DNA of 64,000 bases, taken from the NCBI GenBank assembly GCA_019057375.1, contig DXJF01000011.1:64001-128000 (forward strand), written 5' to 3'. This document shows, one piece after another, positions 4,611-63,422 of the stretch; the stretch's first letter is position 1, and each line of letters begins with the position of its first letter. The position numbers and the translations under genes were made by a program. The DNA comes from Candidatus Heimdallarchaeota archaeon (GTDB lineage: Archaea > Asgardarchaeota > Heimdallarchaeia > Heimdallarchaeales > Heimdallarchaeaceae). The notes under the pieces were generated by a model. It was not told the origin of the DNA. It did not search any database and saw nothing but the letters and a program-made list of their open reading frames with translations.

Positions 4611-4685
4611 ATGATGTACAATGAAAAAAATGACCCGGATGAAGGAGACGGAGACATTCTCCCCCCAGCATGGTCTCCAGGTTAA
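4611..4685 (+). CDS. YDP/PPxWxP family peptide, copy A: MMYNEKNDPDEGDGDILPPAWSPG (24 aa)
   Basis: Translated by hand; paralogous to 7 other copies with synonymous changes; conserved upstream cassette. Confidence 0.8.
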   Translation: MMYNEKNDPDEGDGDILPPAWSPG

Positions 4686-4896: not shown

Positions 4897-4971
4897 ATGA
4901 TGTACGAACCAAAATATGATCCTGAAGGCGGAGACGAAGGTATTTTACCACCTATGTGGTTCCCAAACTGA
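4897..4971 (+). CDS. YDP/PPxWxP family peptide, copy B: MMYEPKYDPEGGDEGILPPMWFPN (24 aa)
   Basis: Translated by hand; SD-like GAGTGA and conserved upstream cassette. Confidence 0.85.
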   Translation: MMYEPKYDPEGGDEGILPPMWFPN

Positions 4972-15308: not shown

Positions 15309-15671
15309 ATCTGACGAACCAATTTCCATTTTTCCTAACTACGCTTGAGCAATTAGTGATTGTGGGCTAAACATCTCGCCGAAGCTCGACGCGTACACCC
15401 CAATTCTATCAACCGGATCTTCTTTCCGCGCTCTCATCTATATCGAAGGTTACTGTCACCAGTCCCCTTATAGTGATACAGAGTGGGTGACTCGTTTCGA
15501 GAGTAGCTTCGAGCGTTGATGCATTCCGCTCTTATCTACGAGGGCTTAGCTACCCGGCGATACCCTTTAGGATAACCGGTACACCAGAGGCCCCAGCCGC
15601 CTGTTCCTCTCGTACTGTGGAGACTTTACTCTCAATCACCCGCCAGCACCATCAGATAGAATCCAACCTGT

Positions 15672-15826
15672 TTTGCGTGAATTTAAGCCCGAGTATTGAT
15701 CTTCGATAGAAGGGATTTCCCGTAAGGGGGGTTTACAACTATCAAAGACTTTTACATACTTGGATGAAGTTCAATTGAAGTATTACTACTATACTTCTAC
15801 AGAACTCCACTATAGCTTAAATCCAT
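15672..15826 (-). other. 155-nt BHB-type intron in 23S, near E. coli position 2599/2600
   Basis: Interrupts GUGAG|ACAGG; terminal stem uggauuuaagcu/ggcuuaaauuca, bulges AGA and AAA around helix UGUG/CGCA; cleavage after the 2nd bulge nt restores the exon. Confidence 0.85.
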
Positions 15827-15975
15827 CTCACAACGGTCTAAACCCAGCTCACGTTCCCTTTTAATGGGCGAACAACCCCACTCTTGGCGGCTGAATCACC
15901 ACCAAGCTAGGAAGAGCCGACATCGAGGTAGCAAGCCGTGAGGTCGATGTGAACTCTTACCCACGACAACTCCGT

Positions 15976-16364
15976 TCAGGGCTGCGCTTGCGCTATGCGC
16001 ACATCGGCTTTAAGGATCAGTTGTCACCTGGTATAACGACATAGGCAGTTACATAATCCTTAACCTTATCTTCATGTCCTCACGCTTATTTTTGGCTCTC
16101 CATCTTTCGTGTTTATTTAGGGATTTATCTATTCTAAATGGATTTGTGACAGAAATTAGATTCACTCTGCTCAAGTTTTGTAGCCTTTTAATGGCGAAAA
16201 CTTTCGTTTCCTCACGTGGAAGAAAGACTGAAGCTATAATTAAATTCACTCAATTTTACTTTTCTGCCTCGGAAAAGATGGACTTTATCAATAAGCGTTA
16301 CAGACAGAGAGCACTCTTTGTGATAAACAATCACTTCTTCGTGATAAACACTCAGAAGCGCAGT
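15976..16364 (-). other. 389-nt BHB-type intron in 23S, near E. coli position 2450/2451
   Basis: Interrupts GGGGUA|ACGG; stem cugcgcuu/aagcgcag, bulge UAA, helix GGGG/CCCU, bulge GAA. Confidence 0.85.
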
Positions 16365-18934
16365 TACCCCTGGAGTAACTTTTCTGCCACCTCCGCCGCC
16401 TACTAATGGCACTGCGAAGGATCGCTAGGCCCTGCGTTAACATCTGCGAACTGTATTGGTGAGTTCACAGTCAACCGAGCTTTTGCCCTTGCACTCTTCA
16501 CCGGATTTCTGTCCCGGTTGAGCTCGGCTTTGGGCCCTCTTGATATCTTTTCAAGAGGCTACCGCCCCAGTGAAACTGCCAGGCAGGGGGTGTCCCCCTC
16601 GCAAGAGGTAAGTCGTACCAATGCGCAAGGTCAGTATTTCAAGTTCGACTCCCCTACATCCCGGAGAATGTAGGATCAGCATCTCCTGACTATGCTATGC
16701 ATGCACACCAATACAACAGCCCCTGACAGCAGTAAAGCTTCACAGGGTCTTCTCTTCCCGATGGTGCGCTCCAGACTGTTCGCTGGACTGTGGGTTCAGT
16801 AGGCTTCGGGTGGAGACAGTGGGCACCTCGTTGGTCCCTTCATGGACGTCTGTAATTAGCAGACAAGGCATTTGCCTACCTTAAGAAGCTCATAGTTAGC
16901 TCCGGCGTTTACTGGGTCTTAGCCTGGTTGAACCCAGGTTTCAATCACCAGCACCGGCCAGGATTCACTAACTGTACTAAGGCTTTCGCCCTTGCAGTTA
17001 GCTATGTTTTTATTAAACAGTCGGGTGCCCCTAGTCACTGCGACCTGGTAAGGCATACACCTTCCCAGGCATCCCTTATACCCAAGGTACGGGACTAATT
17101 TGCCGATTTCCTTCACCCGAGCTCCCCTAACACGCTTTAGCCTTCTAAGCTAGCCACACCTGTGTCGGTTCTGGGTACGGTCACGCGTAATCGTTCTCTT
17201 TGCTTTTTCATGGGCTGTTGGGGTTGATGGCAGCCAGCAACCTATGGCCGGCCTCTTCATCTATTCTTCTGGTTCTCACCTTAACGGTTCTTCCCAGAAT
17301 TCTATAATTTAACTAGGATATGCTCCTAGGCCACCTACCCACCAGCGTTAGCTCAGAGCTTGCGTCGCCGCGTCTATACGCGTGGTACAGGAATATGAAC
17401 CTGTTTCCCTTTCGAACGACTCGTTTTAAGATCGTCCTTAGGACCGACTAACCCTTGGCTGACGAACAGTGCCAAGGAACCCTTGGGCTTTCAGCGATGA
17501 GGATTCTCACCTCACTATGCTCCTACTACCACCGAGATCTGCAAATCTAATCGGTCCACTGGGAATCACTCCCCAGCTTCTGCCCAACCAGATCGCCCCC
17601 CTACCTGAGACTCTTGCGGAGTCCAAATGGGTATCGGGACCCGGTTTAGCCCCGTCCATTTTCTGAGCCCAACAACTCGATGAGTAAGCTGTTACGCTTT
17701 TTTTAACGGATAGCTGCCTCTAAGCTTACCGCCTCATTGTCTTAGTCGTTGGACGTCATTCTGTTTAACATTTAACCGGGATTTAGGGCCCTTAACCCAT
17801 TGTAGGGTTGTTCCCCTTTCGGCCATATCCCTTGCGGATACGCGCCCGTCTGTCGCCTTCTACAGCGCTTGCAAGTTCGGAGTTGGAAGGGAGGGTGAGG
17901 ATTTCACTCCCCAGAACCTCCCGTCCGTAGCTCTACCTCACAAGCCGCCTTCAGCGACGCTATCCTGTGGTGATACTTCGGGGGGAACCAGCTATCAGCA
18001 GTTTAGATTGGTCTTTTGCCACTATCCCCAACTCAGAGGAATGAATTGCATATCAATAACCCTTCAGGCCTCCACGCTCCTTTCGAAGCGCTTCACCTTG
18101 GTCAGGGATAGATCAACTGCTTTCGGGTCTTACACCTGTGACTTCACGCCCTTATCGGACGTCGCGCCTTGCCGAAGCTGCGCGCTGGTCGCTTTCGCTA
18201 CGCCACCGTATTAACTTAGGCTTGCCACAGACATAAACTCCTCGGCCCGTGTTTCAAGACGGAACGGATAACTCTGGTCCTCTCAGCTCGTACTACCACC
18301 TCACGATGGGTTCCTTCACCGAGACTCTACCCTTTCAAGCCATCCACGTCTGTTACCATGTAGTTTCAGGGACTTTTCACTCTCGTATTTCGAATACTTT
18401 TCAACTTTCACTCACGTTACTAGTGCGCTATCGGTCTAGGGGAGTATTTAGGCTTGGGAGTTAGTCCTCCCATATTTGCGCGACAAATCCAAGCCACGCT
18501 AGTCTTGATACTACTAAGCCGAGCGCTTACGTTTACGGGGTTATTACCCTCTATGACGCCCCTTTCCAGGGGCCTTCAACTTCACGCTTTCGGTCTATGT
18601 TGTAGTCAAAACACCACATCTACCTTAATTTTTCAAAAAAGGAATTCGGTTTGGCCTGTTCCGGTTTTACTCGCCGTTACTACCGGAATCACAATTGTTT
18701 TCTTTTCCTGCAGGTACTTGAATGTTTTGGTTCCCTGCGTTCCCCGCCATTACTGGCTGTTACAGTTTATTAGACTGTAACCGGAAATCCGATTCGGGAA
18801 TCTGTGGATCGTAGACTGTCTGCGTCTTCCCACAGCGTTTCGCCGCTTACCGCGCCCTTCATCGGCTCCCTAGCCGAGTCATCCACTACATGGCGTATGC
18901 ATAGTGTAGGTTACTCTAGAAATCAGTTTTCGCC

Positions 18935-20780: not shown

Positions 20781-20855
20781 TTAAGCTGGTGACCAAAATG
20801 GTGGAGTTATGCTTTCGTCGCCATCTTCAGGATCGTATTTCGGTTCATTCATCAT
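20781..20855 (-). CDS. YDP/PPxWxP family peptide, copy C: MMNEPKYDPEDGDESITPPFWSPA (24 aa)
   Basis: Translated by hand; upstream ggggtgctttaatag...taacctttcctgagatgaac cassette. Confidence 0.85.
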   Translation of the reverse strand: MMNEPKYDPEDGDESITPPFWSPA

Positions 20856-21035
20856 GTTCATCTCAGGAAAGGTTATCATTTTAGTTAGACAAAGCTATTA
20901 AAGCACCCCAAAGAAAAGACTGACAGTTACAGCTATTTCTGATTGGAAGAGTTGGCTAATAGATAATTGGCTTGATGAGTTTGAAAGATTAAAACCTTAT
21001 TTTCTTAATTCAGAGCAATTATGACAACTAAAAAA

Positions 21036-21185: not shown

Positions 21186-24100
21186 TTAATTTATGTTTTC
21201 AACATATTTTATTATTTCATGACTTATCATGTAACTTATTCTTTTTCCAATACCATCAATTAAATTTGACATAAAAATATCTCCTGCGTATGTATCCTCC
21301 ATAATCTCAAGAATCAAAGATGGATTTATATGGTGGAAGATATCCAATAGAATTTTTGGATTGTAATTGCTTTCTACATGGGTTGCTGCATATGTTAACC
21401 AAAGAACATCCTCTTTATTTCTGATTAATTGCACTAAATTTGGTATTAATTTTATAGCTATATCTTCTTCTAAGCCTGCAATTTCTAGAAAAGGATAAAC
21501 TACCGTATCAAATGAATAATCATAATTTAGTATAATTGATTCAGAATTAATTTTATCTATTAAAAATACAGTTAGATCTTTGTTAAATACACATAATCCT
21601 TTGATAAAATGAAACAAATCAACAATATTCCATTTATCTTCTAGCTTATTTTTAATAAAATCAGAATCAAGTATAGAATTTATATCTAAAAGAAGATCGT
21701 TTTTTGCAATATATCTCAGAGAATACAAAGTAACACCAATGTCATGAAGATCTTTTTCCGTTTTTATTTTTTCATAAAGAACATCCTTATCTAGTAATAC
21801 AAGTATTCGAGAAATTAAATCCTCAGAAAAAAGTGATGCACTACTCAAAAGACATTTAACACCAATTAAATCTTCAGAACAATTAACTTTTTCAACTAAA
21901 TTCTTAATATTTTTCTTGTTCAATACAAGATTAATTGAGTCTGTTTCACCTAAAAAATCTAAAATTATCTCTATCTGAGACAAGTTTGTTTCAGAGTCAA
22001 TTCTTTTCGTAAAATAATCAAAAATTCTTGTTTTTTTGATATTAAACTGTTTGTTTTTTCCTAAGTTATAATAAAAAAGTTTATTCATGAAATTAATAAG
22101 ATGAATAAAATCTTCATGCTCTATTGTTTTACTCAAAATGATAGATTTTCCAATGATTCCAGAGGCTATCTTAGCTAGATTATAATTTTGGTTGATTATA
22201 GTACTAAGAAAAGAAAACGAACTATCAGGCAATATCCAGTTTATTCTCTTCAAAATTTTTCTGATTTTAATTTTCCTAAGAAATATTCTTATATTTTTAT
22301 TACTCATTTGCCAAAATAAAGATTCAATACTTTGTACAAACATCTTGCAATCTATAACATTTTTGAATTTCTTAATAAGAATATTCAGATATTCTTTTTG
22401 GTACTTCGAAATGATGAATCTTTCATAAAGCATTGTTATAAAGTATAAATCTTCTTCGTACTTCATGCTTTCTAATAAATATTTCATAATCTCTCCGTCG
22501 CTAAGAAGATAATCAACAATACCTTTGGTATTATCATTCATAAGAAATTTCAAAATTTTAATTTTATAATCCTCATTTGAGTGAAGTATGTACTCTTTGA
22601 AGAGATTAAAATCATCCTCGTATCTTTCACCAAGTAAAAGTCGCAAATTATAGGAAATGCAATTTGAGAATTTTATTGCAGAATAATAGAGCTGTGCAAC
22701 AGATTGATGTGACAGAATATAAGTAATCTGAAAATAAGCACTACCAATGTGATGAATGTTGTGTTTTTCGTATAAATTCCAAACGTTTGATATATGGACT
22801 ATTTCTACTGGATAGTATAGCAAATGTTCAATTATTTCATGCTTTTCTAACAAATATTCAAGGATATGATTATGAATTTTTAAATTCTGAATTAGATAAT
22901 TTTTCTCAACCCTAATATTATGTTTGGAGAATACAGATAAAATAAATACACAATCATAAAATTGATCAAGCTCTTTATGATTAAAAACTTCATCTAGACT
23001 TTCAAGTATATATTGATAGATTTCCTCTTCATGAACTTCACATTTTTCATGATCTATTGAGTTTAGAGCAAATTCTAACAACCACAAATCTTGCCAATAC
23101 TTACTCAATTGAATTTGAAGTTTAGAAAAGTTATTATGATTTCGCAAATTAGAATCATTCGGTATATGTTTTTTTACGATTTCTTCAGCAATTTCTTCAG
23201 CTGTAATTTTTAATATGGGATTTCTCTCAAATTCAGAATTTCCTCTTATTTTGAATTCAATAAGTCTTGTTCCTGCAAGTACCAAGCTTTTTGAAGACGC
23301 ATTATGTAATTTACATATGTTATTAAAAGAATTGAGATTTTCATGAATATCATCAAGAATTATTAATGGTTCTTTTCTATCATATAGAAGTATTTTGCAA
23401 AGTTCTTCTATTTTTTCACGATTTTCTTCCTTAAAACTCAGATAATATACTGGTCGTTTTTTTGCCAATATAAAACCCACGTGCTTCAAGAATACAGATT
23501 TTCCTGATGCTGAATCACCTAAAACTATAGTTCTTTTCTGTTTTTCCAATTCTTGAATGCATTCTTTAAGTACTCTTCTTTCAACTATTTTTCCTTCCTC
23601 AAAATTTGACCAAACAGGTATTTTTTGTTTACTTTCAAAAACCTGATCTTTCCTTAAAACATGCTCAATCGAGTTTTTTTCTATTTCCAAATATATGTAT
23701 GAACTAGATCCCTTCTCTCTCAAGTAATCATGTATAATATGTTTCTTAATTGTCGTTCCTTTACAATAATTTTTAGAATTAATGTGACCAAGAAAGTATC
23801 TTATATTGCTTTTGTTTGTTTGATATCCATATTGTTCAGCAATTTCTATTATATGATCTTCTAGTGAATCAAGTTGGATACATTTGAATTCTACTTTTTT
23901 AATGAAATCTGATAGAATATCAACTGTTATTTTACTACCAAACATTTCAGAATAATTTTCCGGAATAATTTTACATATATCCGATAGTTCTTCTTTTGGT
24001 ATTATAATTTTTGAATCTGAAAAAAACTCATCTTTGATAGGTATATTACTATAAAAAACGAAAGTCTCAACTCCTTTTGAACGAACCAATAATTGAAGCA

Positions 24101-24323
24101 AAGGACCTCTTTTTCCTGAATAGAAAAGTTGTTTTGGAGTCCAGCTACTGCTGCTTTGGATACTTTTAGCTTCCCCAATGCAGATTTTTCTTCCGTTAGT
24201 ATAAAAAGAACTGTCTTCATAGTTTTTTTCTATAGAAAATTCATCATATTTGTTTGATAGAATATGGTATAGTGCAGTTAAAATTTGGTAATTAAATTTA
24301 TGTCCAAGATGCTCATCTATCAT
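21186..24323 (-). CDS. STAND/Avs-like protein: N-terminal PD-(D/E)xK-like nuclease, P-loop NTPase, helical C-terminal repeats
   Basis: YEDSS...IGEAKS; Walker A GDSASGKS; Walker B LIILDD; 1045 aa. Confidence 0.65.
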   Translation of the reverse strand: MIDEHLGHKFNYQILTALYHILSNKYDEFSIEKNYEDSSFYTNGRKICIGEAKSIQSSSSWTPKQLFYSGKRGPLLQLLVRSKGVETFVFYSNIPIKDEFFSDSKIIIPKEELSDICKIIPENYSEMFGSKITVDILSDFIKKVEFKCIQLDSLEDHIIEIAEQYGYQTNKSNIRYFLGHINSKNYCKGTTIKKHIIHDYLREKGSSSYIYLEIEKNSIEHVLRKDQVFESKQKIPVWSNFEEGKIVERRVLKECIQELEKQKRTIVLGDSASGKSVFLKHVGFILAKKRPVYYLSFKEENREKIEELCKILLYDRKEPLIILDDIHENLNSFNNICKLHNASSKSLVLAGTRLIEFKIRGNSEFERNPILKITAEEIAEEIVKKHIPNDSNLRNHNNFSKLQIQLSKYWQDLWLLEFALNSIDHEKCEVHEEEIYQYILESLDEVFNHKELDQFYDCVFILSVFSKHNIRVEKNYLIQNLKIHNHILEYLLEKHEIIEHLLYYPVEIVHISNVWNLYEKHNIHHIGSAYFQITYILSHQSVAQLYYSAIKFSNCISYNLRLLLGERYEDDFNLFKEYILHSNEDYKIKILKFLMNDNTKGIVDYLLSDGEIMKYLLESMKYEEDLYFITMLYERFIISKYQKEYLNILIKKFKNVIDCKMFVQSIESLFWQMSNKNIRIFLRKIKIRKILKRINWILPDSSFSFLSTIINQNYNLAKIASGIIGKSIILSKTIEHEDFIHLINFMNKLFYYNLGKNKQFNIKKTRIFDYFTKRIDSETNLSQIEIILDFLGETDSINLVLNKKNIKNLVEKVNCSEDLIGVKCLLSSASLFSEDLISRILVLLDKDVLYEKIKTEKDLHDIGVTLYSLRYIAKNDLLLDINSILDSDFIKNKLEDKWNIVDLFHFIKGLCVFNKDLTVFLIDKINSESIILNYDYSFDTVVYPFLEIAGLEEDIAIKLIPNLVQLIRNKEDVLWLTYAATHVESNYNPKILLDIFHHINPSLILEIMEDTYAGDIFMSNLIDGIGKRISYMISHEIIKYVENIN

Positions 24324-25237: not shown

Positions 25238-28200
25238 ATGAGAAACAGAATTTGGCTTTGTAAAATCCTCTTATTGGCTAGCATACTTTGTGGAGGCTTT
25301 CTTCTAATTAACAGTGAGGTTGAAGCTGAACCAGGATTAAGAGATGTGACAACCAATGCTTTATTACCTTATGATATTAATTTTGAATTTAACTTCTCTG
25401 GCAGTGAAGAAGTTTATAATTTGCATTCAAATCAAATTGAATTAGGAGAACTAAATAAACTCACACTTTCTTTCCGAGTAAACGGTATGAGCGGTTCTCC
25501 AGGATTAAAAATAGTGTTCATTTTCATGACTATTAAAGTTGGATTTGTTGTTGACCGAATTTTTAATGATGATACTTTACACAATTTAACTGAGACTTTT
25601 CTTTTTCCTCACAACTATTCAGGTAGTATGGATATTACTGTCATTTGTAGTGGTAGTTCAACTTCTACAAGAAATGGATTTCTTACCATATTTAATAGCA
25701 CTAAAATAGAACAAATGAATATTCCCACAATATCAGAGGATTCTTTTTCTCTTCCAACTTCCCAGGATTGGGTGATGTTCAAAGGTAATATATATTCTTG
25801 GAATAGAGGAGGAATTACATCTGCTTTTTACAATTACGATGAAATGGCACTAGTAAGTCTTAACATATCCTTCTCTTCAAATTATTTTCAGTCAATAGAA
25901 AATGTAGTTGAAATTTCTTTAAATGGTAATTTTGTTGCAGAAGATTATTTCATTGAAGATTTAAGTAATAATATTGATATTCAATTTCAACCTGAAATAG
26001 GTTTGAATCTCTTATCATTGAATTTCTCTGTTTCTTATTCCTTTAATCCAATTTATATTTCAAATATCTCTCTTTTTGGCTCTCTTTTTAATTATGAATC
26101 TAGCAGTTCTACTTCAGATTCATTTAGTTGGGAAAGTGGTTTTTTTTCCTACTCTTTTGATTTATCTACGTTAAAACCCCCTGGGTACTATTCAGAACAA
26201 GTTCTTCACTTAACAATCAATTACCAATGTTTCGGAATGAAAATCTCTTCAGGAATAAACTATTTTCTAAAAATAGGGACATCTATTCTCGAGGAAGGAA
26301 CCATAAGCTATCTCGAGCAAATGTATGAGAATAATAGTTTAAAGATCGAGACCTTTACTACGGAATATCACAACCCTCTTACGTTTAAAATTTTCGGCAC
26401 TTCGAATGGGGTGGGAGGACTTACTATTTTAAATTCAAGTACGATTGAAATATCTCACATAGGTGAGCTAACAAAACAACCTTTGAGTAGAACCATAGCA
26501 GATGAAAGAAGTGTTAATGGTCCTTCTCTTGCTGTTTCGCTTAGTTTTTATGATGTCTTTCAAACTTATAGGATTGCAGCTCCTGTACAATTAGCTGTTA
26601 ATTTTAATACAGTTTCTACTTATGAACATCCCTTTGATTTACTTACAGTAACAGTCAAAATTGATGGTGTAAGAGTAATATCAAAAAATGTTCATATTCT
26701 CGGTTTTGCAAATTTTAGTAAAGAATTTTCCTTAGAACATGGGTATCACGAAGTTAGAATAAATTTCCAATTTTCTGGCATTAATACTCCTCTCACAGTA
26801 GAACAATTGAAGTACCAACTAGCTTTACAAATTGAAGAAGAAATTACTGTCTCAACAGCACTCTCTTATGCTCGTCAATCAACATTCTATCTTCTAGCCT
26901 TTTACGCCCTCCTCTATGTCCTTCTAGATGTTAAAGAAATAAATCGAGAGAGAATCAAGGAAAAAGAAAGTTCTATTCGTGAAGATTCTATCGAAGATGC
27001 AAATGATGACTCTAGGAATTTATTACGTACGGCTCTCATGGTTGTTGTAAATATATCTATTAATTTGACTCCTTCTGTTTTCTTCTTGTTGCATGGAATT
27101 AATTACTGGTTTATTTTACCCTTAAGCTTCTTTGTAGCTTTACATTTCAGTATCAAAATTCTCTTTTCGAATTTTTCGAAAGATGCAATAGTTGGGTTTT
27201 GGAACAAAACAAGAGACTTCTTTAGAGATATCTATTCCCTCTCAGGCTTTCTTAATAAAGTTACAAGATCATTCGGAAAACTCTCTTTTAGAAGCTTAAC
27301 TAGATTATTGGTCTTCGCTATAGCTTTTCTGAGCTTTGGCTTATTGTTTTTCTTGGCAGATAATATTCCTTCAAATGCTGTCAAGGAAGTCTGGATTGTC
27401 TATGCTCTTTTGCTAGTTTGTATTGTTATATCCTCTCTTACTTTATTCTACACCCTTCATTTAGTTAGAGACATGGCTTTTATAGAGGACAATCTGAAAA
27501 GAATAAAGAGGTTAGGTTATGCTTCCATCACACTTGTTGCTGGTTTTCTATTTGTTCTTATCAGCATGTTAGGCACTAAACTCAGTCTTTCAAGCATCTG
27601 GGGTTTCCTTTCTCCAATCCTCCTTTTTGGTATTTTTCGTACAACAACTAAACTAGGAAAGATTTCTGCCAAAGAAGAAAAGCTCTCCTTTGACGATTTT
27701 CTGGATAAAGGAATGTTCTTCACTGATAAGAAGGAGATGCGAAAAGCTGTCAGTTTTGGTATCAATACTCGCTCTACTTGGGAAAAGAAAGGGTATGAAC
27801 TCCAGAAACATCAGATAAAAGGTGTTATCGCTTACGATTACAACCCTGGAGATAAGATCAATCTCTATGAACTGGCTGAGAAGATTAAACTCCCCTTTAA
27901 GAAAACAGAGGAACTTGTTCAGGAGATAGAAAAAGAAGTTCCTAGATTAGGAAAATATGACCCTCAATCTAAAATCTATACCAAGAGCAAAGAGAATATT
28001 ATAGAAGCTCAGGAAATTCAGGAAAAAATTGTTCCAGATAAATATGAAAATGAAGAAAAGAATGTAGAGATGAGTAAAATACCAACAAAGAATATTTCTA
28101 CAAAAGAAAGATTTCAGAAGCTGCTTGAAGAGGTAGTAGGAGAGAGTGACGAGGAGAAGAGGAGAACTCTAGAATATGTGAATCATTTGACAGCTAAAGA

Positions 28201-30181
28201 AGCGGAAGTATATCAAAAATTCTTGAAAAAGGGATTGGGAGACCAAGATATAGTCATAACTAATTCTGACAGAGAATTTTTACAAAGAGCATGGAAGAAG
28301 ATACATGTTCAAGAAGATATTTTTCAAAGAAACAGTTCTAGCAATTTGCTGAGGGAATATTATGATAAGATATCAGATGCTCACAACGGTTTTGATGATG
28401 TTGTGTTTGAGATAAAAAAAGAATTATTCAAAATATCCTTTTTGGAGTATAAAGTAGGTGATCGTGCAACTTACTATCCTTGGGAGTATATTCCTAAATT
28501 TGGATATCATTTGCTACGTAGAGAATTAAATGAAAAACAACTTCTTAAGTACATAGAAAAAAACCCAATAGTTGAATCTCTTTTTTCATCTCAATCAAAT
28601 TTGGGGAAAAAGAAAGTTCCTTTAATCATTAGAAAGCTATACTACGACAGAAACAGGCAGTATCATATCATTGGAAATGATTGGTTAGTCAAATTCATGA
28701 ATGGAGACTTTCAGAATGCTCTTTCTCATTTAGTCACTAAAGGTCTACTAACAAACAAACAGAAAAAGAGAATTACTGTGGGATTATCGGAATTTAACCA
28801 ATTGGTAGGTTTAGCTCAGAATGGACACACTTTTCGAGTTTTCGATAATACGAAAAAAATACAATTAGAATCTTGTGCAGAAATAACATTAGGTGGAAAA
28901 CAAATTATCTTATACCACGATTTCTTTTTACCTAAGTTTGAGATTAATCAAGAAAAAATCAGCATAAGTCTTCAAGGTTTTAATAAGATAACAACTTCTA
29001 AACACAATCAATTGAACCTGCTAATTAAGAAAGAATACTTCCTCAGAGACGATCAAGAGGACAAGATTCTTGTTCTCTATGCTAAACTTAAAAGAGAATT
29101 TCTTTTAGATTTGATAAAATCTAAATTAATGGACCATTTACAGGTTTTATATGATAAAAGATATATTTCTGGACTTGATACAATTACATCATCAGATTTT
29201 ATTCCGTCTATTGATAAATTAAAAAAGCAACCCACAAGACAGAGGGGTATAGTTTGGTTTTATGATGATATTCAAGTTTCACCTATTGATTTTCTTACTA
29301 ACAAAAAATTCAAAGAAATTCTACAGGAAAAAGATGAAGAATTGCTATTTTCTAAATTAGCTTCATTACTAAGTGACACTGAAACTTTTTTTGAAGACGA
29401 AGGTAGAAAGCAATTTTCTATAGCTTATGAAGCCTATAAGAATGGACATTTCGATTTCTTTCTTTTTAATCAAAGTGTTAATGAGATCTATAAACCTCCT
29501 ACTTACTCTTTTAGGCAAGGTAATATTCCTAAAACTGGTGTTATATTAGTTGACCACAACAATAGAATAATCAACTTAATTTCCCCCTCAAAAGCTGTTA
29601 GTATTCTACTAGAAGAGGGTGATATATTGCTTAACTTTCCTTTTAGATGGGATTCACACTATGGTTATTTTGCATTCACCCAAAAAGGAAATAGAATGAG
29701 TAATGTTGCCAAGTCTTGGTATGATTGGTTGATTAAGGCAAATCTTCCCATTCCTTCAGGTTCCAGTGGTAGAATTCCTGATATATCAGTAATTGCAATG
29801 TTACTAGAGTGGTGGACAAGGCAAGAAAATTTTGTTATCAATAGGATTCTTTCAAACCAAGTTTTTATTGAGAGTTGTAGGAAACACAAAATTGTGGTTG
29901 ATAAAGATTCTACAATGGTTATTGATTCAAAAAAGAATTCTTACAAACTTGCACGAGTTTCTGTTACTCAAACAGGAAATATTAGACATAAAGAAAATTG
30001 GAAATATTACGCGTTTTATAATGACAAAATACGCACAGTTATTGATGTTCTTAAAGCTGCAATTTTTGATTTAGTTTTACAGAAAGGCAATATTTCTTCC
30101 GCTCAAATACCTGATTTGAGAAATTGGTTGAAGATAAATTGGTTGGAAGAATTTGAAAAACTGAAAGAATATTTCTTTTGA
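25238..30181 (+). CDS. 1647-aa membrane protein; ectodomain paralogous to 12141-14858, TM bundle, winged-helix-like segment, large unassigned cytoplasmic tail
   Basis: Aligned by eye: ELGELNKLTLSF..PHNYSGSMDITVICSG vs ELQEYNSLTIFF..PQNFIGSMIIVISCEG; FSYSFDLSTLKP vs VDHSFDLSSLKP. Confidence 0.75.
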   Translation: MRNRIWLCKILLLASILCGGFLLINSEVEAEPGLRDVTTNALLPYDINFEFNFSGSEEVYNLHSNQIELGELNKLTLSFRVNGMSGSPGLKIVFIFMTIKVGFVVDRIFNDDTLHNLTETFLFPHNYSGSMDITVICSGSSTSTRNGFLTIFNSTKIEQMNIPTISEDSFSLPTSQDWVMFKGNIYSWNRGGITSAFYNYDEMALVSLNISFSSNYFQSIENVVEISLNGNFVAEDYFIEDLSNNIDIQFQPEIGLNLLSLNFSVSYSFNPIYISNISLFGSLFNYESSSSTSDSFSWESGFFSYSFDLSTLKPPGYYSEQVLHLTINYQCFGMKISSGINYFLKIGTSILEEGTISYLEQMYENNSLKIETFTTEYHNPLTFKIFGTSNGVGGLTILNSSTIEISHIGELTKQPLSRTIADERSVNGPSLAVSLSFYDVFQTYRIAAPVQLAVNFNTVSTYEHPFDLLTVTVKIDGVRVISKNVHILGFANFSKEFSLEHGYHEVRINFQFSGINTPLTVEQLKYQLALQIEEEITVSTALSYARQSTFYLLAFYALLYVLLDVKEINRERIKEKESSIREDSIEDANDDSRNLLRTALMVVVNISINLTPSVFFLLHGINYWFILPLSFFVALHFSIKILFSNFSKDAIVGFWNKTRDFFRDIYSLSGFLNKVTRSFGKLSFRSLTRLLVFAIAFLSFGLLFFLADNIPSNAVKEVWIVYALLLVCIVISSLTLFYTLHLVRDMAFIEDNLKRIKRLGYASITLVAGFLFVLISMLGTKLSLSSIWGFLSPILLFGIFRTTTKLGKISAKEEKLSFDDFLDKGMFFTDKKEMRKAVSFGINTRSTWEKKGYELQKHQIKGVIAYDYNPGDKINLYELAEKIKLPFKKTEELVQEIEKEVPRLGKYDPQSKIYTKSKENIIEAQEIQEKIVPDKYENEEKNVEMSKIPTKNISTKERFQKLLEEVVGESDEEKRRTLEYVNHLTAKEAEVYQKFLKKGLGDQDIVITNSDREFLQRAWKKIHVQEDIFQRNSSSNLLREYYDKISDAHNGFDDVVFEIKKELFKISFLEYKVGDRATYYPWEYIPKFGYHLLRRELNEKQLLKYIEKNPIVESLFSSQSNLGKKKVPLIIRKLYYDRNRQYHIIGNDWLVKFMNGDFQNALSHLVTKGLLTNKQKKRITVGLSEFNQLVGLAQNGHTFRVFDNTKKIQLESCAEITLGGKQIILYHDFFLPKFEINQEKISISLQGFNKITTSKHNQLNLLIKKEYFLRDDQEDKILVLYAKLKREFLLDLIKSKLMDHLQVLYDKRYISGLDTITSSDFIPSIDKLKKQPTRQRGIVWFYDDIQVSPIDFLTNKKFKEILQEKDEELLFSKLASLLSDTETFFEDEGRKQFSIAYEAYKNGHFDFFLFNQSVNEIYKPPTYSFRQGNIPKTGVILVDHNNRIINLISPSKAVSILLEEGDILLNFPFRWDSHYGYFAFTQKGNRMSNVAKSWYDWLIKANLPIPSGSSGRIPDISVIAMLLEWWTRQENFVINRILSNQVFIESCRKHKIVVDKDSTMVIDSKKNSYKLARVSVTQTGNIRHKENWKYYAFYNDKIRTVIDVLKAAIFDLVLQKGNISSAQIPDLRNWLKINWLEEFEKLKEYFF

Positions 30182-30352: not shown

Positions 30353-31863
<1,511 letters not shown>

Positions 31864-32026: not shown

Positions 32027-32669
32027 GTGAGTGTAAAATTCATACAGTACTTTTTTATGTTTTGCAAGGGTTTTTTAAGTTATCGTTCGACGGCTTATTG
32101 TAGTCAGCCTACAATAACTAATCTGCACTCTTACAATATGACTACTGTCTTTTCTCTTTTATTGGTTGCTATTTAAGAGTTTTTTGCCGCTATAAAAAAT
32201 CAAACGTAAATTCAGAAGAATCAGTAAACGTAAAGGAGCGGATTCTTTTAGCCGAACCCGCTCTAAAGACATGGCTTAACATCCACTCATCAGACGTGAG
32301 TCTGACTGTTCGTGGCAATATACTTAGAAGAAGTTCGATATATATACTTTGCTCTTTTTTCTGTTATACATCTTCCAGAGTATTCGTAGATTAGAGGCTT
32401 AAAGTCGGTAAAATAACTCTGAAAGTAATTGACACAATTTTTCTTTGGAAATTAATGATGATACTATAATATCAACTATGAGAAATAGAGGGTGGTGATA
32501 AGGAAAGGATAGTTTAGTTTTTTTTTAGCAAACGAGGAATCCCTATATTTCTTTTTTCCTCTGTTCTGATAGAAATTCTAGTTTAAGAGAAATTTAGCAC
32601 AAAATTTCTTGTGAGGATATACGATCTTGTAAAACATTAACTATAACCTAGCTTAAAGAGATGAACCTA

Positions 32670-32728
32670 ATGAGATATTATGACCAACAGATGATGACGA
32701 CTGGTTACCCTCAGAATGGTTTCCTTAA
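32670..32728 (+). pseudogene. YDP/PPxWxP family peptide, copy D, missing one C: would read MRYYDPTDDDDWLPSEWFP
   Basis: gaccaaca versus gacccaaca in copy E; otherwise colinear with E. Confidence 0.7.
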
Positions 32729-32866
32729 ACTATTCTAATCTTACTTTTTTTATTCAGATAACCAATTTTAAGCGAAGATGTTTTATACCTTTTTCTCTTA
32801 AATTGTACAGAGTAAAACTATCAATTGACATCAAACCTTTGAGGAAAGGTATTGTGGGGATAAAGT

Positions 32867-34543
32867 ATGCTAGATACTGAAGAGTTTCGAGAAAGAAAAG
32901 AAAGAATTTTTCAGAATATTGGAAGTCTTAATACTTTATCTGATCTTAGTGACCATGTCTTGGATTTAGAACTCGTTTGTGCAAACGAAAGATCTTTGGA
33001 ATTAGCGAACATTCTGAAGAAGACTATAATTGTAGCGAAAGAAATTGAGAATAATAACCTTTTGTATAAGTCATATAGACTGTATTTTCAGCAAATATTT
33101 TCATATGTTCAGAGATTGGATGAGGCTGAAGAAATAGTTAATTGCATGCAAACAATTGCAGAATCAAGTAATAACATAGAACATGAATCTCTTGTTTATT
33201 TTTCAAAAGCTCTTCTAATTAGAATTCATGGACTAATTGAAAAATCTGATGAACTTACAATTAAGGCAATGAGAAAAATAGAAAAAGGAAAGAAAATTTA
33301 TCCCGATACATATTACCGTATTCTTTTTACTTATAATATGTTTATGTGGTATCGTGATAATGATTTTCCAGATGTTTTTTCTAATGTAGAAAAATGTGTT
33401 TCCTATTGGAAAGATACGTATCACACTTTACCTATGATTACAGGGATATTCAGATTACTTAGATTGTACATATTTTCAGGTAATAGTGAAAAATTTAATA
33501 ATTTAATGCAATGGATATTTGAGAAGGAAAGAATACAAGATAATTTAATTGATTATCATTTCACATTACTATATTCCTTCATTGGTCGTATCCAAGCAAT
33601 TCGATTGAATATCGACAAGGCTATAGATTTTTTATCTGAAGCATATCATAGAGTAATTTCTTCAAAATCTGAAGATATAATGATGTACGAATATATTGAA
33701 ATTCAGAAGTTATTGTGTAGAAGCTATGCATTTAAAGGAGAATTTCAAAAATCTTATCAAATCCTTATTGAGTTTCTAAATTTCGTTGAAAGTGATTTTG
33801 TTAAGCAGAATTATCAAACTTCAATGGTAAAAAGACTGTATTTTGGTGTATATTATACCCTGTTGTTTATTTTTGCTCAACTTGATGTTAATATTGATAA
33901 TATAGCAGATACTCAGCTAAAGAGAATACACAATTATACAAAGAATCTTCTTGAAAAATCAAGAATTTCAGAGGATTTACTAATAAGCAATTCTTTAGAT
34001 GACAAACAATTGGATAAAATTAAAATAGAAAAAGATAAGAGACCTGTTGAGTTTGATTTATCTCTGTATCAACAGTTAAATTCTCTTAAGACACAAGCTG
34101 CTTCTGAAAATACAGTTAGTAACATAGAGTATCTGAGAGGTTATGTTTACAACCCCTTATATGCTGACATAATTTTGGGAAAGATTCATCTTTCCATTGG
34201 TAATTTTAGAGAATTTAAGAGTATAGTTAAACAAATGGAAAATAAGGAAAAAGAAGCTGATACTCCTGTTTTGATTCTTTGGATAAAACTATATAGGTTG
34301 CTGTTTGAATACTTAGAAGATCCTGGAAATAAAGTGATATTATCAGAGTTTAGAAAATTGGAATCTTACTGCAAGAAAAATAATTTCATCAAGATGTCAG
34401 AAGAAATTAACTTATACTTCAAACTAATAACTTCAACAAAAACAATCAATAACTTAACTCAAAAATTCCAACAAACAGCTTTTACTGATATTTATAATAA
34501 ACAGTCAAAAAGAATGGTTGTTGAATATCTTGATAGTAAATAA
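32867..34543 (+). CDS. 558-aa all-helical TPR-like protein flanked by peptide genes D and E
   Basis: Repeated amphipathic helical pairs (IDKAIDFLSEAY, FQKSYQILIEF); homologous to ORF at 63562. Confidence 0.7.
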   Translation: MLDTEEFRERKERIFQNIGSLNTLSDLSDHVLDLELVCANERSLELANILKKTIIVAKEIENNNLLYKSYRLYFQQIFSYVQRLDEAEEIVNCMQTIAESSNNIEHESLVYFSKALLIRIHGLIEKSDELTIKAMRKIEKGKKIYPDTYYRILFTYNMFMWYRDNDFPDVFSNVEKCVSYWKDTYHTLPMITGIFRLLRLYIFSGNSEKFNNLMQWIFEKERIQDNLIDYHFTLLYSFIGRIQAIRLNIDKAIDFLSEAYHRVISSKSEDIMMYEYIEIQKLLCRSYAFKGEFQKSYQILIEFLNFVESDFVKQNYQTSMVKRLYFGVYYTLLFIFAQLDVNIDNIADTQLKRIHNYTKNLLEKSRISEDLLISNSLDDKQLDKIKIEKDKRPVEFDLSLYQQLNSLKTQAASENTVSNIEYLRGYVYNPLYADIILGKIHLSIGNFREFKSIVKQMENKEKEADTPVLILWIKLYRLLFEYLEDPGNKVILSEFRKLESYCKKNNFIKMSEEINLYFKLITSTKTINNLTQKFQQTAFTDIYNKQSKRMVVEYLDSK

Positions 34544-34601
34544 AACTCTTTTATTGAAATAAAAAAAACAAAAGAAAAATTCCAAAATGGATTCTTTTTG
34601 C

Positions 34602-34664
34602 TTAAGGGTACCATTCTGGGGGGAGGAAATCATCGTCGTCTGTTGGGTCGTAATATCTCATCAT
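34602..34664 (-). CDS. YDP/PPxWxP family peptide, copy E: MMRYYDPTDDDDFLPPEWYP (20 aa)
   Basis: Translated by hand; SD-like gagatgaac upstream. Confidence 0.8.
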   Translation of the reverse strand: MMRYYDPTDDDDFLPPEWYP

Positions 34665-34849
34665 GTTCATCTCGGATAGTTTTACTGATATTTACCTCAA
34701 GAAAAGATAATAAACAAATCAGAAATTTCGTGTCAGAATCTTTTTGAAAAAGTATGATTTTTCACACTTTTTTTGGTATTTTTATATCCTAAGGTAGTAT
34801 CCCCCTTGATTATCTCTTGTACTTTGAGTATTCTTAGAGAGGAAATACT

Positions 34850-37678
34850 ATGACTAAAAAGAAGAAATCTCAGTTTCGTTATAGTTCCAATAAACAACAG
34901 CAAACTAGAACTAGAAGGATTATTAGAGCAATTCTTCCCTGGATCTGTGTAATTGTTCTTGGTTTTATTTCCTTTATATTTCTCTTTCCAGAGTTGGTGA
35001 AATTGTTTCCATCCGATTTTTTAATTTCTATAGCAGCATTCAGTGAAAATATAGCTCTTTTCTTGAAAGGTTTCTTTATTACTCTCTTTACTAATTTAGT
35101 TTTTATTTCCTCGATTTTAGCTCTTCTTATATTTTTCATTGCGGTTAAATTATTACCTTTCTACAACATTGATGATACAGAATTTTATACTCAGAAGAAA
35201 TTGTTTTTACCCTTTTTTAGAAAGATTGGCGTAGTAATGGTTTCTTCCTCAACAGGAAACGGCAACAGTAATTACAGCAACAGTAGCTATGCTAATAAAA
35301 TTCATGAATCTTTCATCAACTGTCTTTCATTGAGAACAAAAGATAGAATGTTAGCCATTTACAAACATACTACTGGAGTAAGCATATTTTTTCCAATTAT
35401 TTCTAAAGGGTGGATAAAGAACAGAACTAATCAACGTTTAAATCGAGATATTATTTTCATTTCTAATTCGATTGATAGTCATTATGATTGCAGAATCAAA
35501 ACTTTGAATGGTGACCAGACTAAAGATCTTGTTCAAGCTCTGAATCAAATGAAAGCTAAGAGTAAAATTGAATCCTCTTCTGAGTTGATTACTCAATTTA
35601 ATGTGACTGATCAAATGTATAACATCTTTGTTAAGAATGAAATAAAGGATACTTGTTTTATCATTAAAACAGATAAGAAAAGGAGAGAATCTAAGAAAAT
35701 TGTTTTTGATCTTCTTCTTTTATCTGAAGACAATGCTACAGAATCATTTATTTTCAATGCCTCTGGTTTGTCTAAGAAGAAAAGAAAAGTTATAACACCT
35801 AACAAGAACTTTCATAGTCTAGTTTTCTCCCCAATTCGTAAGAAAGAATCTGTATTGATTGACGATATCGCTTCTTTAGTTCATGTGCCTATGGCTTATA
35901 GAGGTGGTTCTTTACCAATTAGTGCTAAAAGAGATGGTCTAAGTTCTTCTATACTGAAGGATGAAGATAATGTTATTGTTGTAGGTAGAGCAATAGATGA
36001 AAATGATATGGGAAAGGAGATTTTTCTAAATGTGAAAGACCTCTTACTTAATGTTGAAATCCTAGGATCTATCGGCAGGGGGAAGACAAAACTAGTTTCA
36101 TCAATTGTCGGTCAGCTATTTGAGAAGAAAATAAGTACACTAGTTTTTGACATTAAAGGTGAGTATGCTAGAACATTCACAGAAGACCCAAGAATCGAAA
36201 TTTATACAATTGGAAAACCTCATCCTCTTTGCATAAATATTTTCGAAACAGTTGATGAAGATGATATCCATAATACTTTACTGATTATAGAGGAAATGTT
36301 ACTTTCTTCAAATCAAGAGTTTACACCTGCTATGAAGAATCTATTTGAAAGTGCTCTCTTACTTACTCATAAAGCACCCAAACGTAATTTACAAGTTTTT
36401 GTTGAAAACATTTTCAAGGTTTCAAGACAGCTGCAAGCTCATTCAAACATCACTTATTTACAACAAACTATTGATGCCGTTCTTAACAGATTAAATTTCA
36501 TATTTAATCCAATAAATTTTGAAATCTTAGGTGCTATGAGAACAACTTTAGATCTTTCCCTTCTAGAAGGGGGTAGAAGTATCATTTTGGATTTAAGCCA
36601 GTTCCAGAGAAGAGCGGCAAGACCTTCTGATATCTTTTTGGTATGCAATTTGGTACTTAAAATGCTCTATAGAAAAGCTTCTGCAAGAGAGATGACTAAC
36701 AAATTACGATATGTAGTTGTTCTTGAAGAAGCCATCAATATTATTCCTAATTTCTATCATTCCGAAAGCTCTGCATCTTTGATTACATCTGAAAACAATT
36801 TCTTACTTGGAAGATCTCTCGGAATCGGGCACATTACTATTACTCAGATGTGGCAAAGTGTTAGTAATATAGTTCATGGTAACTCTGCTACAAAATTTGT
36901 ATTCAGGTCAAGTGAAAAAACAGATCTCATAGTCAAAGCTTTAAATCTAGAAGAGGACGAGATCACTAAAATACAGAGTTTACCAACACAACATTGTTTC
37001 TTATTCTTTGAAGGTTCAGATTCAGCTATACAAATTCGAACACTAAACTTAGCGACAGATCCAATCAGCTTTACTGAATATCAAACGAAAATGTTGAAAA
37101 AATATGGTAGAAGCGTTTTTCCTCTGCTATTTAATAACTTCATAGATATGCGAACTTCTATCTATCAACAGAGTAACGCGAATATCGTTGGAAAAAACAA
37201 GAAATTTACTAGTAAAAGACAAGATTTAGCTCAAAACAAGTTAGATAATTTTCTGAAAGAAGAAGAATTGGAAATTGATTCTAATAAGAAAATGATTATT
37301 GAGAAGGACACTTTGGATTTCATTACTTCAGCAGGATTATTACCTGAAAACTTAATCTGCGAACAATTGTGTTTTCAGGAGGATAGCGAGAAAAACTGCT
37401 TGAAGTATAATATGGGAGCAAAAGTTGTGAAATCTACTATACTCAATGAATGTTCCACTGAAGAGATTTCTATTATGCTTACTGATGTGAGAGAACTTCA
37501 TTCCTTGGTTTCCGCAATATCTACAAAGAGAAACCTTGAGTTCGATGAAAATCTAGTCTTTTGTACAGTAAAAACTTTGGTTGTGGACTTTATTTCAGAG
37601 AATATCCTAACTCCAAACGAAGCTTATAGTATTCTTACAAGATTCTCTCTTAGGATTAAAGAGACAATAAATACTTAA
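34850..37678 (+). CDS. membrane-anchored HerA/VirB4-like ATPase
   Basis: N-terminal TM helices; GSIGRGKT, VFDIKGEY, VVLEEA, GRSLGIG..ITQ. Confidence 0.8.
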   Translation: MTKKKKSQFRYSSNKQQQTRTRRIIRAILPWICVIVLGFISFIFLFPELVKLFPSDFLISIAAFSENIALFLKGFFITLFTNLVFISSILALLIFFIAVKLLPFYNIDDTEFYTQKKLFLPFFRKIGVVMVSSSTGNGNSNYSNSSYANKIHESFINCLSLRTKDRMLAIYKHTTGVSIFFPIISKGWIKNRTNQRLNRDIIFISNSIDSHYDCRIKTLNGDQTKDLVQALNQMKAKSKIESSSELITQFNVTDQMYNIFVKNEIKDTCFIIKTDKKRRESKKIVFDLLLLSEDNATESFIFNASGLSKKKRKVITPNKNFHSLVFSPIRKKESVLIDDIASLVHVPMAYRGGSLPISAKRDGLSSSILKDEDNVIVVGRAIDENDMGKEIFLNVKDLLLNVEILGSIGRGKTKLVSSIVGQLFEKKISTLVFDIKGEYARTFTEDPRIEIYTIGKPHPLCINIFETVDEDDIHNTLLIIEEMLLSSNQEFTPAMKNLFESALLLTHKAPKRNLQVFVENIFKVSRQLQAHSNITYLQQTIDAVLNRLNFIFNPINFEILGAMRTTLDLSLLEGGRSIILDLSQFQRRAARPSDIFLVCNLVLKMLYRKASAREMTNKLRYVVVLEEAINIIPNFYHSESSASLITSENNFLLGRSLGIGHITITQMWQSVSNIVHGNSATKFVFRSSEKTDLIVKALNLEEDEITKIQSLPTQHCFLFFEGSDSAIQIRTLNLATDPISFTEYQTKMLKKYGRSVFPLLFNNFIDMRTSIYQQSNANIVGKNKKFTSKRQDLAQNKLDNFLKEEELEIDSNKKMIIEKDTLDFITSAGLLPENLICEQLCFQEDSEKNCLKYNMGAKVVKSTILNECSTEEISIMLTDVRELHSLVSAISTKRNLEFDENLVFCTVKTLVVDFISENILTPNEAYSILTRFSLRIKETINT

Positions 37679-62880: not shown

Positions 62881-62952
62881 ATGATGTACGAACTAAAATA
62901 CGACCCTGATGAGGGAGATGGAGATATTATGCCTCCTGTATGGCTTCCTTAG
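62881..62952 (+). CDS. YDP/PPxWxP family peptide, copy F: MMYELKYDPDEGDGDIMPPVWLP (23 aa)
   Basis: Translated by hand; full upstream cassette. Confidence 0.85.
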   Translation: MMYELKYDPDEGDGDIMPPVWLP

Positions 62953-63178: not shown

Positions 63179-63250
63179 TTGATGTATGAACAAAAATATG
63201 ACCCTGACGAAGGAGACGATGGAATTTTACCACCTGCTTGGTTGCCATAA
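63179..63250 (+). CDS. YDP/PPxWxP family peptide, copy G: (TTG)MYEQKYDPDEGDDGILPPAWLP
   Basis: Translated by hand; TTG-ATG in place of ATG-ATG; partly degenerate upstream cassette. Confidence 0.8.
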   Translation: MMYEQKYDPDEGDDGILPPAWLP

Positions 63251-63353: not shown

Positions 63354-63422
63354 ATGATGTATAAACTAAAATATGATCCAGGCAATGATGATGATTTACC
63401 CCCTGGTTGGTTCCCAAACTAA
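63354..63422 (+). CDS. YDP/PPxWxP family peptide, copy H: MMYKLKYDPGNDDDLPPGWFPN (22 aa)
   Basis: Translated by hand; full upstream cassette. Confidence 0.85.
   Translation: MMYKLKYDPGNDDDLPPGWFPN

Follow-up and report, generated by a model that had tools for sequence, protein, structure and literature searches.

Micro-genes for acidic peptides are paired with tetratricopeptide repeat proteins in Heimdallarchaeaceae: a candidate archaeal peptide-receptor system

In this study we describe a family of very short genes for acidic peptides that are paired, within the archaeal family Heimdallarchaeaceae, with genes for tetratricopeptide repeat (TPR) proteins. The genes lie in a 64,000-nucleotide stretch of a Candidatus Heimdallarchaeota archaeon genome (assembly GCA_019057375.1, contig DXJF01000011.1, positions 64,001 to 128,000), which we call the window and whose first nucleotide is position 1 in what follows. 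Sequence comparison and computation revealed the genes, their linkage, their co-diversification and the co-variation of residues at predicted contacts. We consider it probable that peptides and TPR proteins form matched binding pairs, in which occupancy by the peptide would switch or tune a shared downstream function, likely inside the cell. A preliminary description of the window had suggested such a cognate system at two loci, and the elements needed to follow the argument are these:

32867-34543, + strand: type-1 TPR protein of 558 aa (P0001), with an ATG start and an all-helical model.
34602-34670, - strand: peptide gene E of 22 codons, cognate of the 558-aa type-1 TPR protein, convergent with its gene and 58 bp past the TPR stop.
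34671-34750, - strand: upstream module of E (type 1) with its predicted promoter and Shine-Dalgarno box, a block common to D and to the orthologs at loci L006 and L050.
~34560-34601, - strand: T-rich tail after E, with T runs 3' of the stop.
32661-32728, + strand: peptide copy D, a decaying duplicate of E upstream of the 558-aa TPR gene.
62881-62952, + strand: peptide gene F, 23 aa, DEGD/ILPP subtype, an orphan here; the identical peptide is found in the related genome G013.
63182-63250, + strand: peptide gene G, 22 aa, DEGD/ILPP subtype, an orphan here, with synonymous differences from F.
63354-63422, + strand: peptide gene H, 22 aa, ending PPGWFPN, cognate of the 524-aa TPR protein (clade with 100% support).
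63562-64000, + strand: 5' part of the type-2 TPR gene (P0002, 524 aa), which runs past the window (L001:1562-3136).

Only two pairs in the window are complete, the 558-aa protein with its peptide E and the 524-aa protein with its peptide H. A six-frame search of the whole 3.47-Mb assembly with a regular expression confined the peptide family to a 60-kb stretch of contig C12, and tblastn with all 52 family members as queries returned only two family TPR genes. With these two and eight peptide genes the source genome stands at the low end of the family's copy number.

The peptides are 18-26 residues long, strongly acidic (net charge about -5) and follow the consensus [Y/F/H]-D-P, an acidic block, [L/T/G]-P-P-x-W-x-P, then zero to three residues and the stop. 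The tryptophan and prolines of the motif are invariant, and the tail after the last conserved proline is either absent or consists of N, G, A, Y, H, V or IIP. The reading frame is kept over its whole length, the first residues included, and the residues are kept despite many synonymous changes, both within the window (for example F versus G) and among 117 matches in relatives; that F and G differ at many synonymous sites shows that the peptide itself is under selection. Almost every copy is preceded by a common module of ~75 nt, made up of a TGTCA...TTTCTTTCTTG block, a TTTTA[G/A]TA box and a GAGTGATG box. The last of these, 5-8 nt 5' of the ATG, can base-pair with the 3' end of the window's own 16S rRNA. 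A T-rich tail lies 3' of nearly every peptide gene. When a hidden Markov model of the module was trained on the relatives only, it gave only six matches in the source genome, before the type-2-style peptide genes A, B, C, F, G and H (A, B and C are introduced below), and D and E share a different, type-1 upstream block. By these signals the peptide units are best described as self-contained genes with a putative promoter, Shine-Dalgarno box, reading frame and terminator that gene callers have missed. We also considered whether the peptides are decoys that mimic the motif of a larger host protein, and rejected this idea, as the full motif occurs in no larger reading frame of the genome.

A strict degenerate DNA pattern for the peptide matched 117 times in 20 of the 25 genomes of the genus, whereas reversed-pattern controls gave 0 matches; nor did the pattern match in any of 16 genomes from other families in the order. 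Among 81 non-redundant peptide genes (20 arrays), 56 have the same orientation as a family TPR gene and precede it by no more than 700 bp, and 11 more are convergent with such a gene just past its stop. The linkage holds in both directions: a family TPR gene was found within 1.5 kb at 26 of 30 loci chosen by their peptide, and a peptide gene within 700 bp at 25 of 29 loci chosen by their TPR gene. The four misses of the second set are one contig end and three loci of a third TPR subfamily, and all 25 assessable type-1 and type-2 loci chosen by TPR match carry a peptide. The pairing is therefore far beyond chance. A survey across Heimdallarchaeia had been suggested, but that frame is too wide: the TPR family was found only in the window's own taxonomic family, being present in 27 of 30 genomes there and in 0 of 52 whole genomes searched from other families of the class.

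The layout differs between the TPR subfamilies. Type-1 genes are always accompanied by a convergent peptide gene right after the stop (L003-L007, L038, L041, L049, L050), and some of these loci also carry an upstream peptide copy (e.g. in genome G001). Since upstream and convergent copies recur in type-1 loci, the bracketing of the 558-aa gene by D and E is an instance of a recurring layout. Type-2 genes are preceded by between one and three peptide genes. Diverged pairs were also found in a sister genus, with an FDP variant of the peptide, and beside two far more distant family members. Relaxed patterns detected no peptide near the most divergent TPR members (L059, L060, L086-L088). Short open reading frames (ORFs) starting with MFDP lie before or behind a third-subfamily gene at L059:3765-3800, L088:1425-1472 and L061:5739-5816, and at L088 (same sequence in L059) only a short MFDP ORF precedes the TPR gene; these ORFs may be remnants of peptide genes.

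If peptide and TPR protein belong together, their diversification should be coupled, as had been suggested from the two loci in the window. In a maximum-likelihood tree of 40 cassette proteins, each labelled with the subtype of its proximal peptide, the clades of the TPR proteins do coincide with the peptide subtypes, and they do so at a finer grain than the short and long subtypes originally distinguished. Five peptide features change far less often on the tree than after shuffling, only 0-1 of 300 label shuffles reaching the observed parsimony. As relatives have labels in common, what this result shows is that each cassette is passed on and diversifies as one unit. The 524-aa protein falls into a clade with 100% support in which all four proximal peptides end in PPGWFPN, and because of this placement H is taken as its cognate.

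The gene at 63562 had been called a clear homolog of the 558-aa gene. Profile comparison and an alignment of 52 members do unite both proteins in one family, but the relationship is a distant one, their N-terminal 263 residues being only 24% identical (pairwise E 1e-8). Orthologs of the 558-aa protein share 37-59% identity. Type-1 proteins (~560 aa) occur once per genome as a stable single-copy ortholog across the genus; type-2 proteins (~525-535 aa) occur many times per genome; members of the third, divergent subfamily adjoin genes for a ParA-like ATPase and a geranylgeranyl-reductase-like protein, and for the most part have no peptide gene. In the genomes of the genus the TPR copy number ranges from 0 to 12 per genome and many copies are shortened or carry internal stops; the family turns over quickly. 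An exhaustive profile search of 1.84 billion representatives gave 83 matches at E < 1e-10 before the noise of generic TPR proteins set in.

The assignment to TPR-type proteins holds. Pfam searches with all members found TPR_12 in 21 of 52 and TPR_MalT in 14 of 52, while the 558-aa protein alone had no Pfam match. Its AlphaFold2 model (predicted local distance difference test, pLDDT, 87.4; predicted template modelling score 0.84) is an all-helical solenoid with helical hairpins over residues 4-528. After re-alignment of Foldseek candidates, the closest structural match was a phage Rap protein with its peptide (Z 19.2, root-mean-square deviation 3.7 Å over 285 residues), followed by APC6/Cut9 (Z 17-18), the proteasome lid, TSK, NprR-NprX (16.7), APPBP2 (16.6) and LGN (16.5), and further by other Rap proteins, Tom71 with an Hsp70 tail (Z 15.8), KLC1 with C-terminal peptides (Z 15.2) and MalT domain III. 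Foldseek itself on the PDB gave generic TPR proteins with TM-scores of 0.28-0.46. As the structural scores lie close together, they point to common architecture and not to common descent. The profile searched against all PDB sequences gave one-repeat matches only (IFIT1 and designed TPR proteins, E 3e-4 or weaker) and none to Rap, NprR, PlcR or AimR. An ESM Atlas feature search with the 524-aa protein led to unnamed or generic TPR clusters only, with recognition below the useful mark. Searches of Pfam, NCBIfam and PADLOC found no DNA-binding domain such as a helix-turn-helix (HTH) in the TPR proteins, in keeping with what had been noted before, and no toxin, enzyme or other non-TPR domain; neither protein of the window matches a PADLOC or NCBIfam family.

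A complex of peptide and TPR protein was predicted with ESMFold2 in one job from the type-1 TPR alignment and the type-1 peptide alignment, unpaired. The score was 0.85 (three runs, 0.84-0.89), against 0.01 for the best control. Of 80 solved complexes 58 attain the mark applied to this score, as do 2 of 110 mismatched pairs; these counts hold only roughly because the calibration set had no protein shorter than 30 residues and relied on different alignments. Between runs at least 51% of contacts are the same, and the pLDDT of the partner is at least 58. In the model, peptide residues 9-22 are buried in a groove formed by TPR residues 42-330, and the peptide tryptophan lies against TPR residues 116, 119, 155 and 158.

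The contact sets of this model were fixed beforehand and then tested on independent pairs, namely 32 natural type-2 proteins with their proximal peptides, by entropy-corrected mutual information over 475 alignment columns. The predicted contacts ranked as follows:

Peptide residue 21 (x of WxP): predicted TPR contacts 75, 116, 78 and 151, at ranks 2, 3, 8-9 and 13-21 of 475.
Peptide residue 19 (x of PPxW): predicted TPR contact 192, at rank 2-4 of 475.
Peptide residue 16 (before PP): predicted TPR contacts 275 and 274, at ranks 3-5 of 475.
Peptide residue 15: predicted TPR contact 158, at rank 4-6 of 475.

When the contact sets of peptide residues 16, 19 and 21 were cross-assigned, their ranks fell to 66-463. 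Residue 15 has top-ranked columns in common with its neighbours 16 and 19. When the contacts were slid along the protein, the signal peaked at shift 0, where 7 of 11 pairs ranked among the top 13; secondary peaks were seen at -3/-4 but not at +/-2, a pattern to be expected if the contacts lie on a single face of a helix. The columns that track peptide residue 21 (71-79, 112-116, 148-152) are spaced from one another as consecutive repeats are. When all 35 groove contacts were pooled and compared with raw mutual information, no enrichment was seen; the raw measure favours columns of high entropy, and the signal is seen only with entropy-corrected scores and residue-specific sets. The complex model and the co-variation together support binding in the predicted register, with the C-terminus of the peptide toward the N-terminal repeats. 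Cognate pairing as such thus received support from linkage in ~25 genomes, from the complex score and from co-variation at contacts. The earlier proposal that PPxWxP-COOH is the docking motif proved too narrow: the model buries residues 9-22, and a fixed clamp on the C-terminal carboxylate seems unlikely because the tail after the last proline varies from 0 to 3 residues.

A closer look at the peptide copies changes the picture of both loci in the window. E is intact and convergent as had been noted, but D is not a second working gene. Compared with E, D lacks one base in the Asp-Pro codons (GAC-CCA to GA-CCA), a deletion which places a TGA stop just upstream in the frame of the motif, and it reads P-S where every intact copy reads P-P. 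Because of the frameshift and the change of proline to serine in the invariant PP, we regard D as a decaying duplicate, a pseudogene. At the equivalent site in G001 (L049:10835-10891) the upstream copy is intact and identical to the intact convergent copy there. Likewise F, G and H, described as three peptides of one receptor, are indeed three intact genes, of which only H is cognate to the 524-aa protein. In G013 the order at the same place is Orc1/Cdc6, an F-like gene, a G-like gene, a TPR gene of the DEGD clade and an H-like gene; because of this DEGD-clade gene we conclude that the TPR gene cognate to F and G is missing here. Three more peptide genes stand without a TPR gene:

4611-4685, + strand: orphan peptide gene A, beside a pyrophosphatase gene.
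4897-4971, + strand: orphan peptide gene B, an intact copy near A and the pyrophosphatase gene.
20781-20861, - strand: orphan peptide gene C, 13 bp from the stop of a cupin gene.

A near-twin of C in the related genome G004 precedes a cupin-adjacent TPR gene that is absent from the source genome, and in G004 a cassette cluster, including a type-1 TPR cassette, lies beside the pyrophosphatase gene where A and B sit here. On this comparison A, B, C, F and G are best explained as orphans left behind by loss of TPR genes. Just upstream of C, on the same strand, lies a gene for a 1045-aa STAND NTPase (21186-24323, -; nSTAND5/nSTAND3 matches), which occupies the site of the cupin-adjacent TPR cassette of a relative; BLAST found no relationship between this protein and the TPR family.

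How might such pairs work? Each micro-gene, with its own promoter block, Shine-Dalgarno-like box and T-rich terminator, would yield an unprocessed, leaderless acidic peptide of 18-26 residues. Its C-terminal two thirds, made up of the acidic block and [L/T/G]-PP-x-W-x-P, would lie extended in the concave groove of the first ~8 TPR repeats (residues ~40-330) of the neighbouring gene's product, with the invariant tryptophan and the two prolines against conserved groove residues, and the variable peptide positions (before PP, x of PPxW, x of WxP) would face variable groove residues and so give the pair its specificity. In type-2 paralogs the conserved C-terminal TPR module would probably meet a common partner, and peptide occupancy might then switch or tune a shared downstream function, most likely intracellular. 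Physical binding, cytoplasmic action, the switch and its output are what we infer from the data. That module, the last ~100 residues, has a conservation of 0.86-0.92 in type-2 paralogs versus 0.38-0.6 in the ligand-binding half. In comparisons of pairs within a genome, the C-terminal codons show 70-91% amino-acid identity, and 23-46% of the codons for identical residues differ synonymously, which argues for purifying selection rather than recent gene conversion. A variable sensor half joined to a constant half would fit parallel inputs that feed one partner.

Several points weigh against this mechanism. We found neither an output domain nor a partner, and the C-terminal module, folded alone, is only TPR-like, with a best Z of 11 that is in the usual range for helical repeats and with no discriminating match. 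Intracellular action is argued solely from the lack of a leader, and leaderless export exists in other peptide systems. The third TPR subfamily has no detectable peptide nearby, and the five intact orphans of the source genome show that peptide genes can be retained where no receptor gene adjoins them. The complex tool is uncalibrated for a 22-residue partner, so that the pass may reflect a likeness to solved TPR-peptide complexes. The co-variation test uses related sequences whose shared ancestry the ranking of columns controls only partly, and the transfer of type-2 to type-1 numbering rests on an alignment of 17-24% identity. Shared ancestry inflates co-variation scores but cannot place them on predicted contacts.

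In logic the pairs are closest to Rap-Phr and the other RRNPP systems (Rap, NprR-NprX, PlcR-PapR, Rgg-SHP, AimR-AimP). Here as there the gene for a TPR-type receptor adjoins that of its own short peptide, many diverged paralogous pairs with matched specificities occur per genome, and the peptide, by prediction in our case, lies extended in the concave TPR groove. It might hence be thought that the peptides are secreted RRNPP-type pheromones for quorum or kin sensing that leave the cell through an ATP-binding cassette (ABC) exporter, accumulate outside, are re-imported and are read by the TPR protein in the cytoplasm. The cassette logic with up to 12 paralogous pairs per genome, the pherotype-like subtypes, the presence of Rap, NprR and PlcR/Rgg among the best structural matches, and genes for an ABC ATPase and an FtsX-type permease beside some cassettes in several genomes would all suit this explanation, and orphan peptide genes are also known among Phr systems. 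However, RRNPP peptides are exported and processed to 5-10 residues, while the archaeal ones look like finished products of 18-26 residues. Inspection of the peptide sequences themselves showed no signal peptide and no hydrophobic leader or stretch, as had been noted before, and a net charge of about -5. With the whole ORF conserved, the peptide alignments show no discernible pro-region, cleavage site or leader/core organisation. Neither exporters nor importers show consistent linkage, and the position of the ABC genes is conserved synteny among close relatives only. The receptor is larger (525-565 aa) and has neither an HTH nor a three-helix phosphatase-type output domain. Moreover, RRNPP hosts are Bacillota and their phages, not archaea; the peptide gene there lies downstream of or overlaps the receptor gene, whereas here it is upstream or convergent; and no sequence relationship is detectable beyond generic TPR repeats. 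What the archaeal pairs have of an RRNPP system is hence the TPR-type receptor and the adjacent cognate peptide gene; what they do not have is the export pro-peptide, the receptor output domain and the sequence relationship. We therefore consider secretion unlikely.

In ligand chemistry, on the other hand, the pairs are closest to eukaryote-type TPR readers of acidic or tryptophan motifs: KLC with Trp-acidic motifs, APPBP2 of CRL2 with the RxxGP C-degron, and Hop, CHIP and Tom70 with EEVD. In these, too, a groove reads a short extended acidic or tryptophan motif near a C-terminus, and KLC2 with a tryptophan-acidic peptide is among the structural matches of the C-terminal module. The ligand there is part of a larger protein, whereas here it is a free-standing gene product; the motif differs, and no homology was shown. 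The carboxylate-clamp receptors (Hop/CHIP with EEVD, PEX5 with PTS1) recognise a carboxylate at fixed distance, and here that distance is variable with the tail.

The orphans invite another explanation, in which the free TPR protein is harmful or hyperactive and the small, abundant acidic peptide neutralises it like an antidote, so that TPR genes can be lost alone but peptide genes cannot. This would account for a source genome with five intact orphan peptides and no type-1 or type-2 TPR gene without a peptide, for the peptide at all 25 assessable loci of these types, for the frequent TPR pseudogenes with internal stops and for the 2-3 peptide gene copies that often accompany one TPR gene. Yet the TPR protein has no toxin or enzyme domain and no PADLOC match. 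Deletion also spares small genes more readily, and recombination within tandem arrays gives rise to orphans; type 1, for its part, is kept throughout the genus as a stable single-copy ortholog, unlike addiction modules. On balance such an antidote appears quite improbable to us, and matched binding pairs remain the reading we favour.

It is very improbable that the peptide genes are leaders in which translation of PPxWxP-stop stalls the ribosome and thereby controls read-through into the downstream TPR gene. Arrest peptides such as TnaC typically contain Pro-Pro, Trp and a proline directly ahead of the stop, and like those of the TnaC and SecM type the peptides come from ORFs of ~20 residues with conserved Trp, Asp and Pro, end at or near a proline and often lie upstream of a longer gene, in our case at 56 of 81 copies on the same strand with a T-rich tract between. 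However, type-1 peptide genes are convergent with the TPR gene in every ortholog, intact orphans exist, each tandem copy has its own promoter module and terminator, and the distance from motif to stop varies by 0-3 extra residues; the consistent cis position of an arrest leader, upstream of the regulated gene in one transcript, and its fixed spacing of key residues to the stop are thus lacking. The co-variation of peptide residues with specific TPR residues is likewise not predicted for a leader that acts in cis. Hardly any more credible is a precursor of a ribosomally synthesized and post-translationally modified peptide with the helical protein as modifying enzyme or scaffold, acting for example on the invariant tryptophan, since in spite of short precursor-like genes that adjoin a large conserved protein, of invariant Trp and Pro, and of the existence of all-helical peptide-modifying enzymes, the protein is a plain TPR solenoid with no signal of a catalytic family, the peptide has no leader/core organisation, and tailoring enzymes, proteases and exporters are not consistently linked.

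Two neighbouring gene sets recur beside the cassettes. One is represented in the window:

34850-37678, + strand: membrane-anchored HerA/FtsK-type ATPase of 942 aa (Pfam DUF87, TrwB_AAD_bind).

This protein has N-terminal membrane segments, a DUF87 domain, a TrwB-like core and a weak CedD match, and its homologs adjoin cassettes in six genomes (L003, L006, L041, L043, L049), once divergently. The neighbourhood may reflect a functional link or mere synteny next to the L1-L10-P1 ribosomal genes. The other set is the gene pair for the ABC ATPase and FtsX-type permease, which, together with two small uncharacterised genes, lies beside cassettes of the EPGD/IGPP subtype in several genomes of the genus (L040:4262-7070, L044, L045, L047); the pair is a candidate exporter or simply conserved synteny. 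The window also shows features that are separate from the pairs. The genes for 16S rRNA (30353-31863, -) and 23S rRNA (15333-18910, -) are unlinked and 11.4 kb apart, with the cupin gene, peptide gene C, the STAND NTPase gene and the gene for a 1647-aa protein between them. The 23S match spans 3578 nt versus a model of 2987 positions, which implies ~590 nt of insertions. The 1647-aa protein (25238-30181, +) and a 905-aa protein (12141-14858, -) are paralogous (25% identity over 550 residues) and have no family match in Pfam, NCBIfam or PADLOC. Near the orphans A and B, a 523-aa protein (5884-7455, -) carries five DUF4379 treble-clef zinc-finger repeats (E 3e-92).

To our knowledge, genetically linked pairs of a peptide and a TPR receptor have been known only from Bacillota and their phages, and full-text literature searches found no description of such a pair in archaea. 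The pairs have the look of a peptide-receptor code not described so far, in organisms closely related to eukaryotes. The pairs sit in an archaeal family that includes Heimdallarchaeum genomes of cultivable scale and lies close to the origin of eukaryotes, and TPR domains that read short acidic or tryptophan motifs are a principal means of wiring in eukaryotic cells. With a ligand of 22 residues and a soluble receptor the system is compact; it is also naturally diversified into many matched pairs and provided with a residue-level model of binding, which makes it directly testable, and it illustrates that standard gene calling misses a conserved and probably highly expressed gene family. Tentatively, and with considerable doubt, one might go further and think of a lineage-specific, multi-channel peptide code in Heimdallarchaeaceae. 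Up to a dozen orthogonal pairs per cell would then be told apart by a two- or three-site code (peptide residue 16 with TPR residues 274/275, residue 19 with 188/192 and residue 21 with 75/112-116/148-152) and would serve as switches on a shared partner or as leaderless signals between cells, for kin or quorum recognition. If this were true, archaea would have here a first system of communication or recognition that works through peptides, and one that foreshadows, in a prokaryote, the eukaryote-style recognition of short linear motifs by TPR domains.

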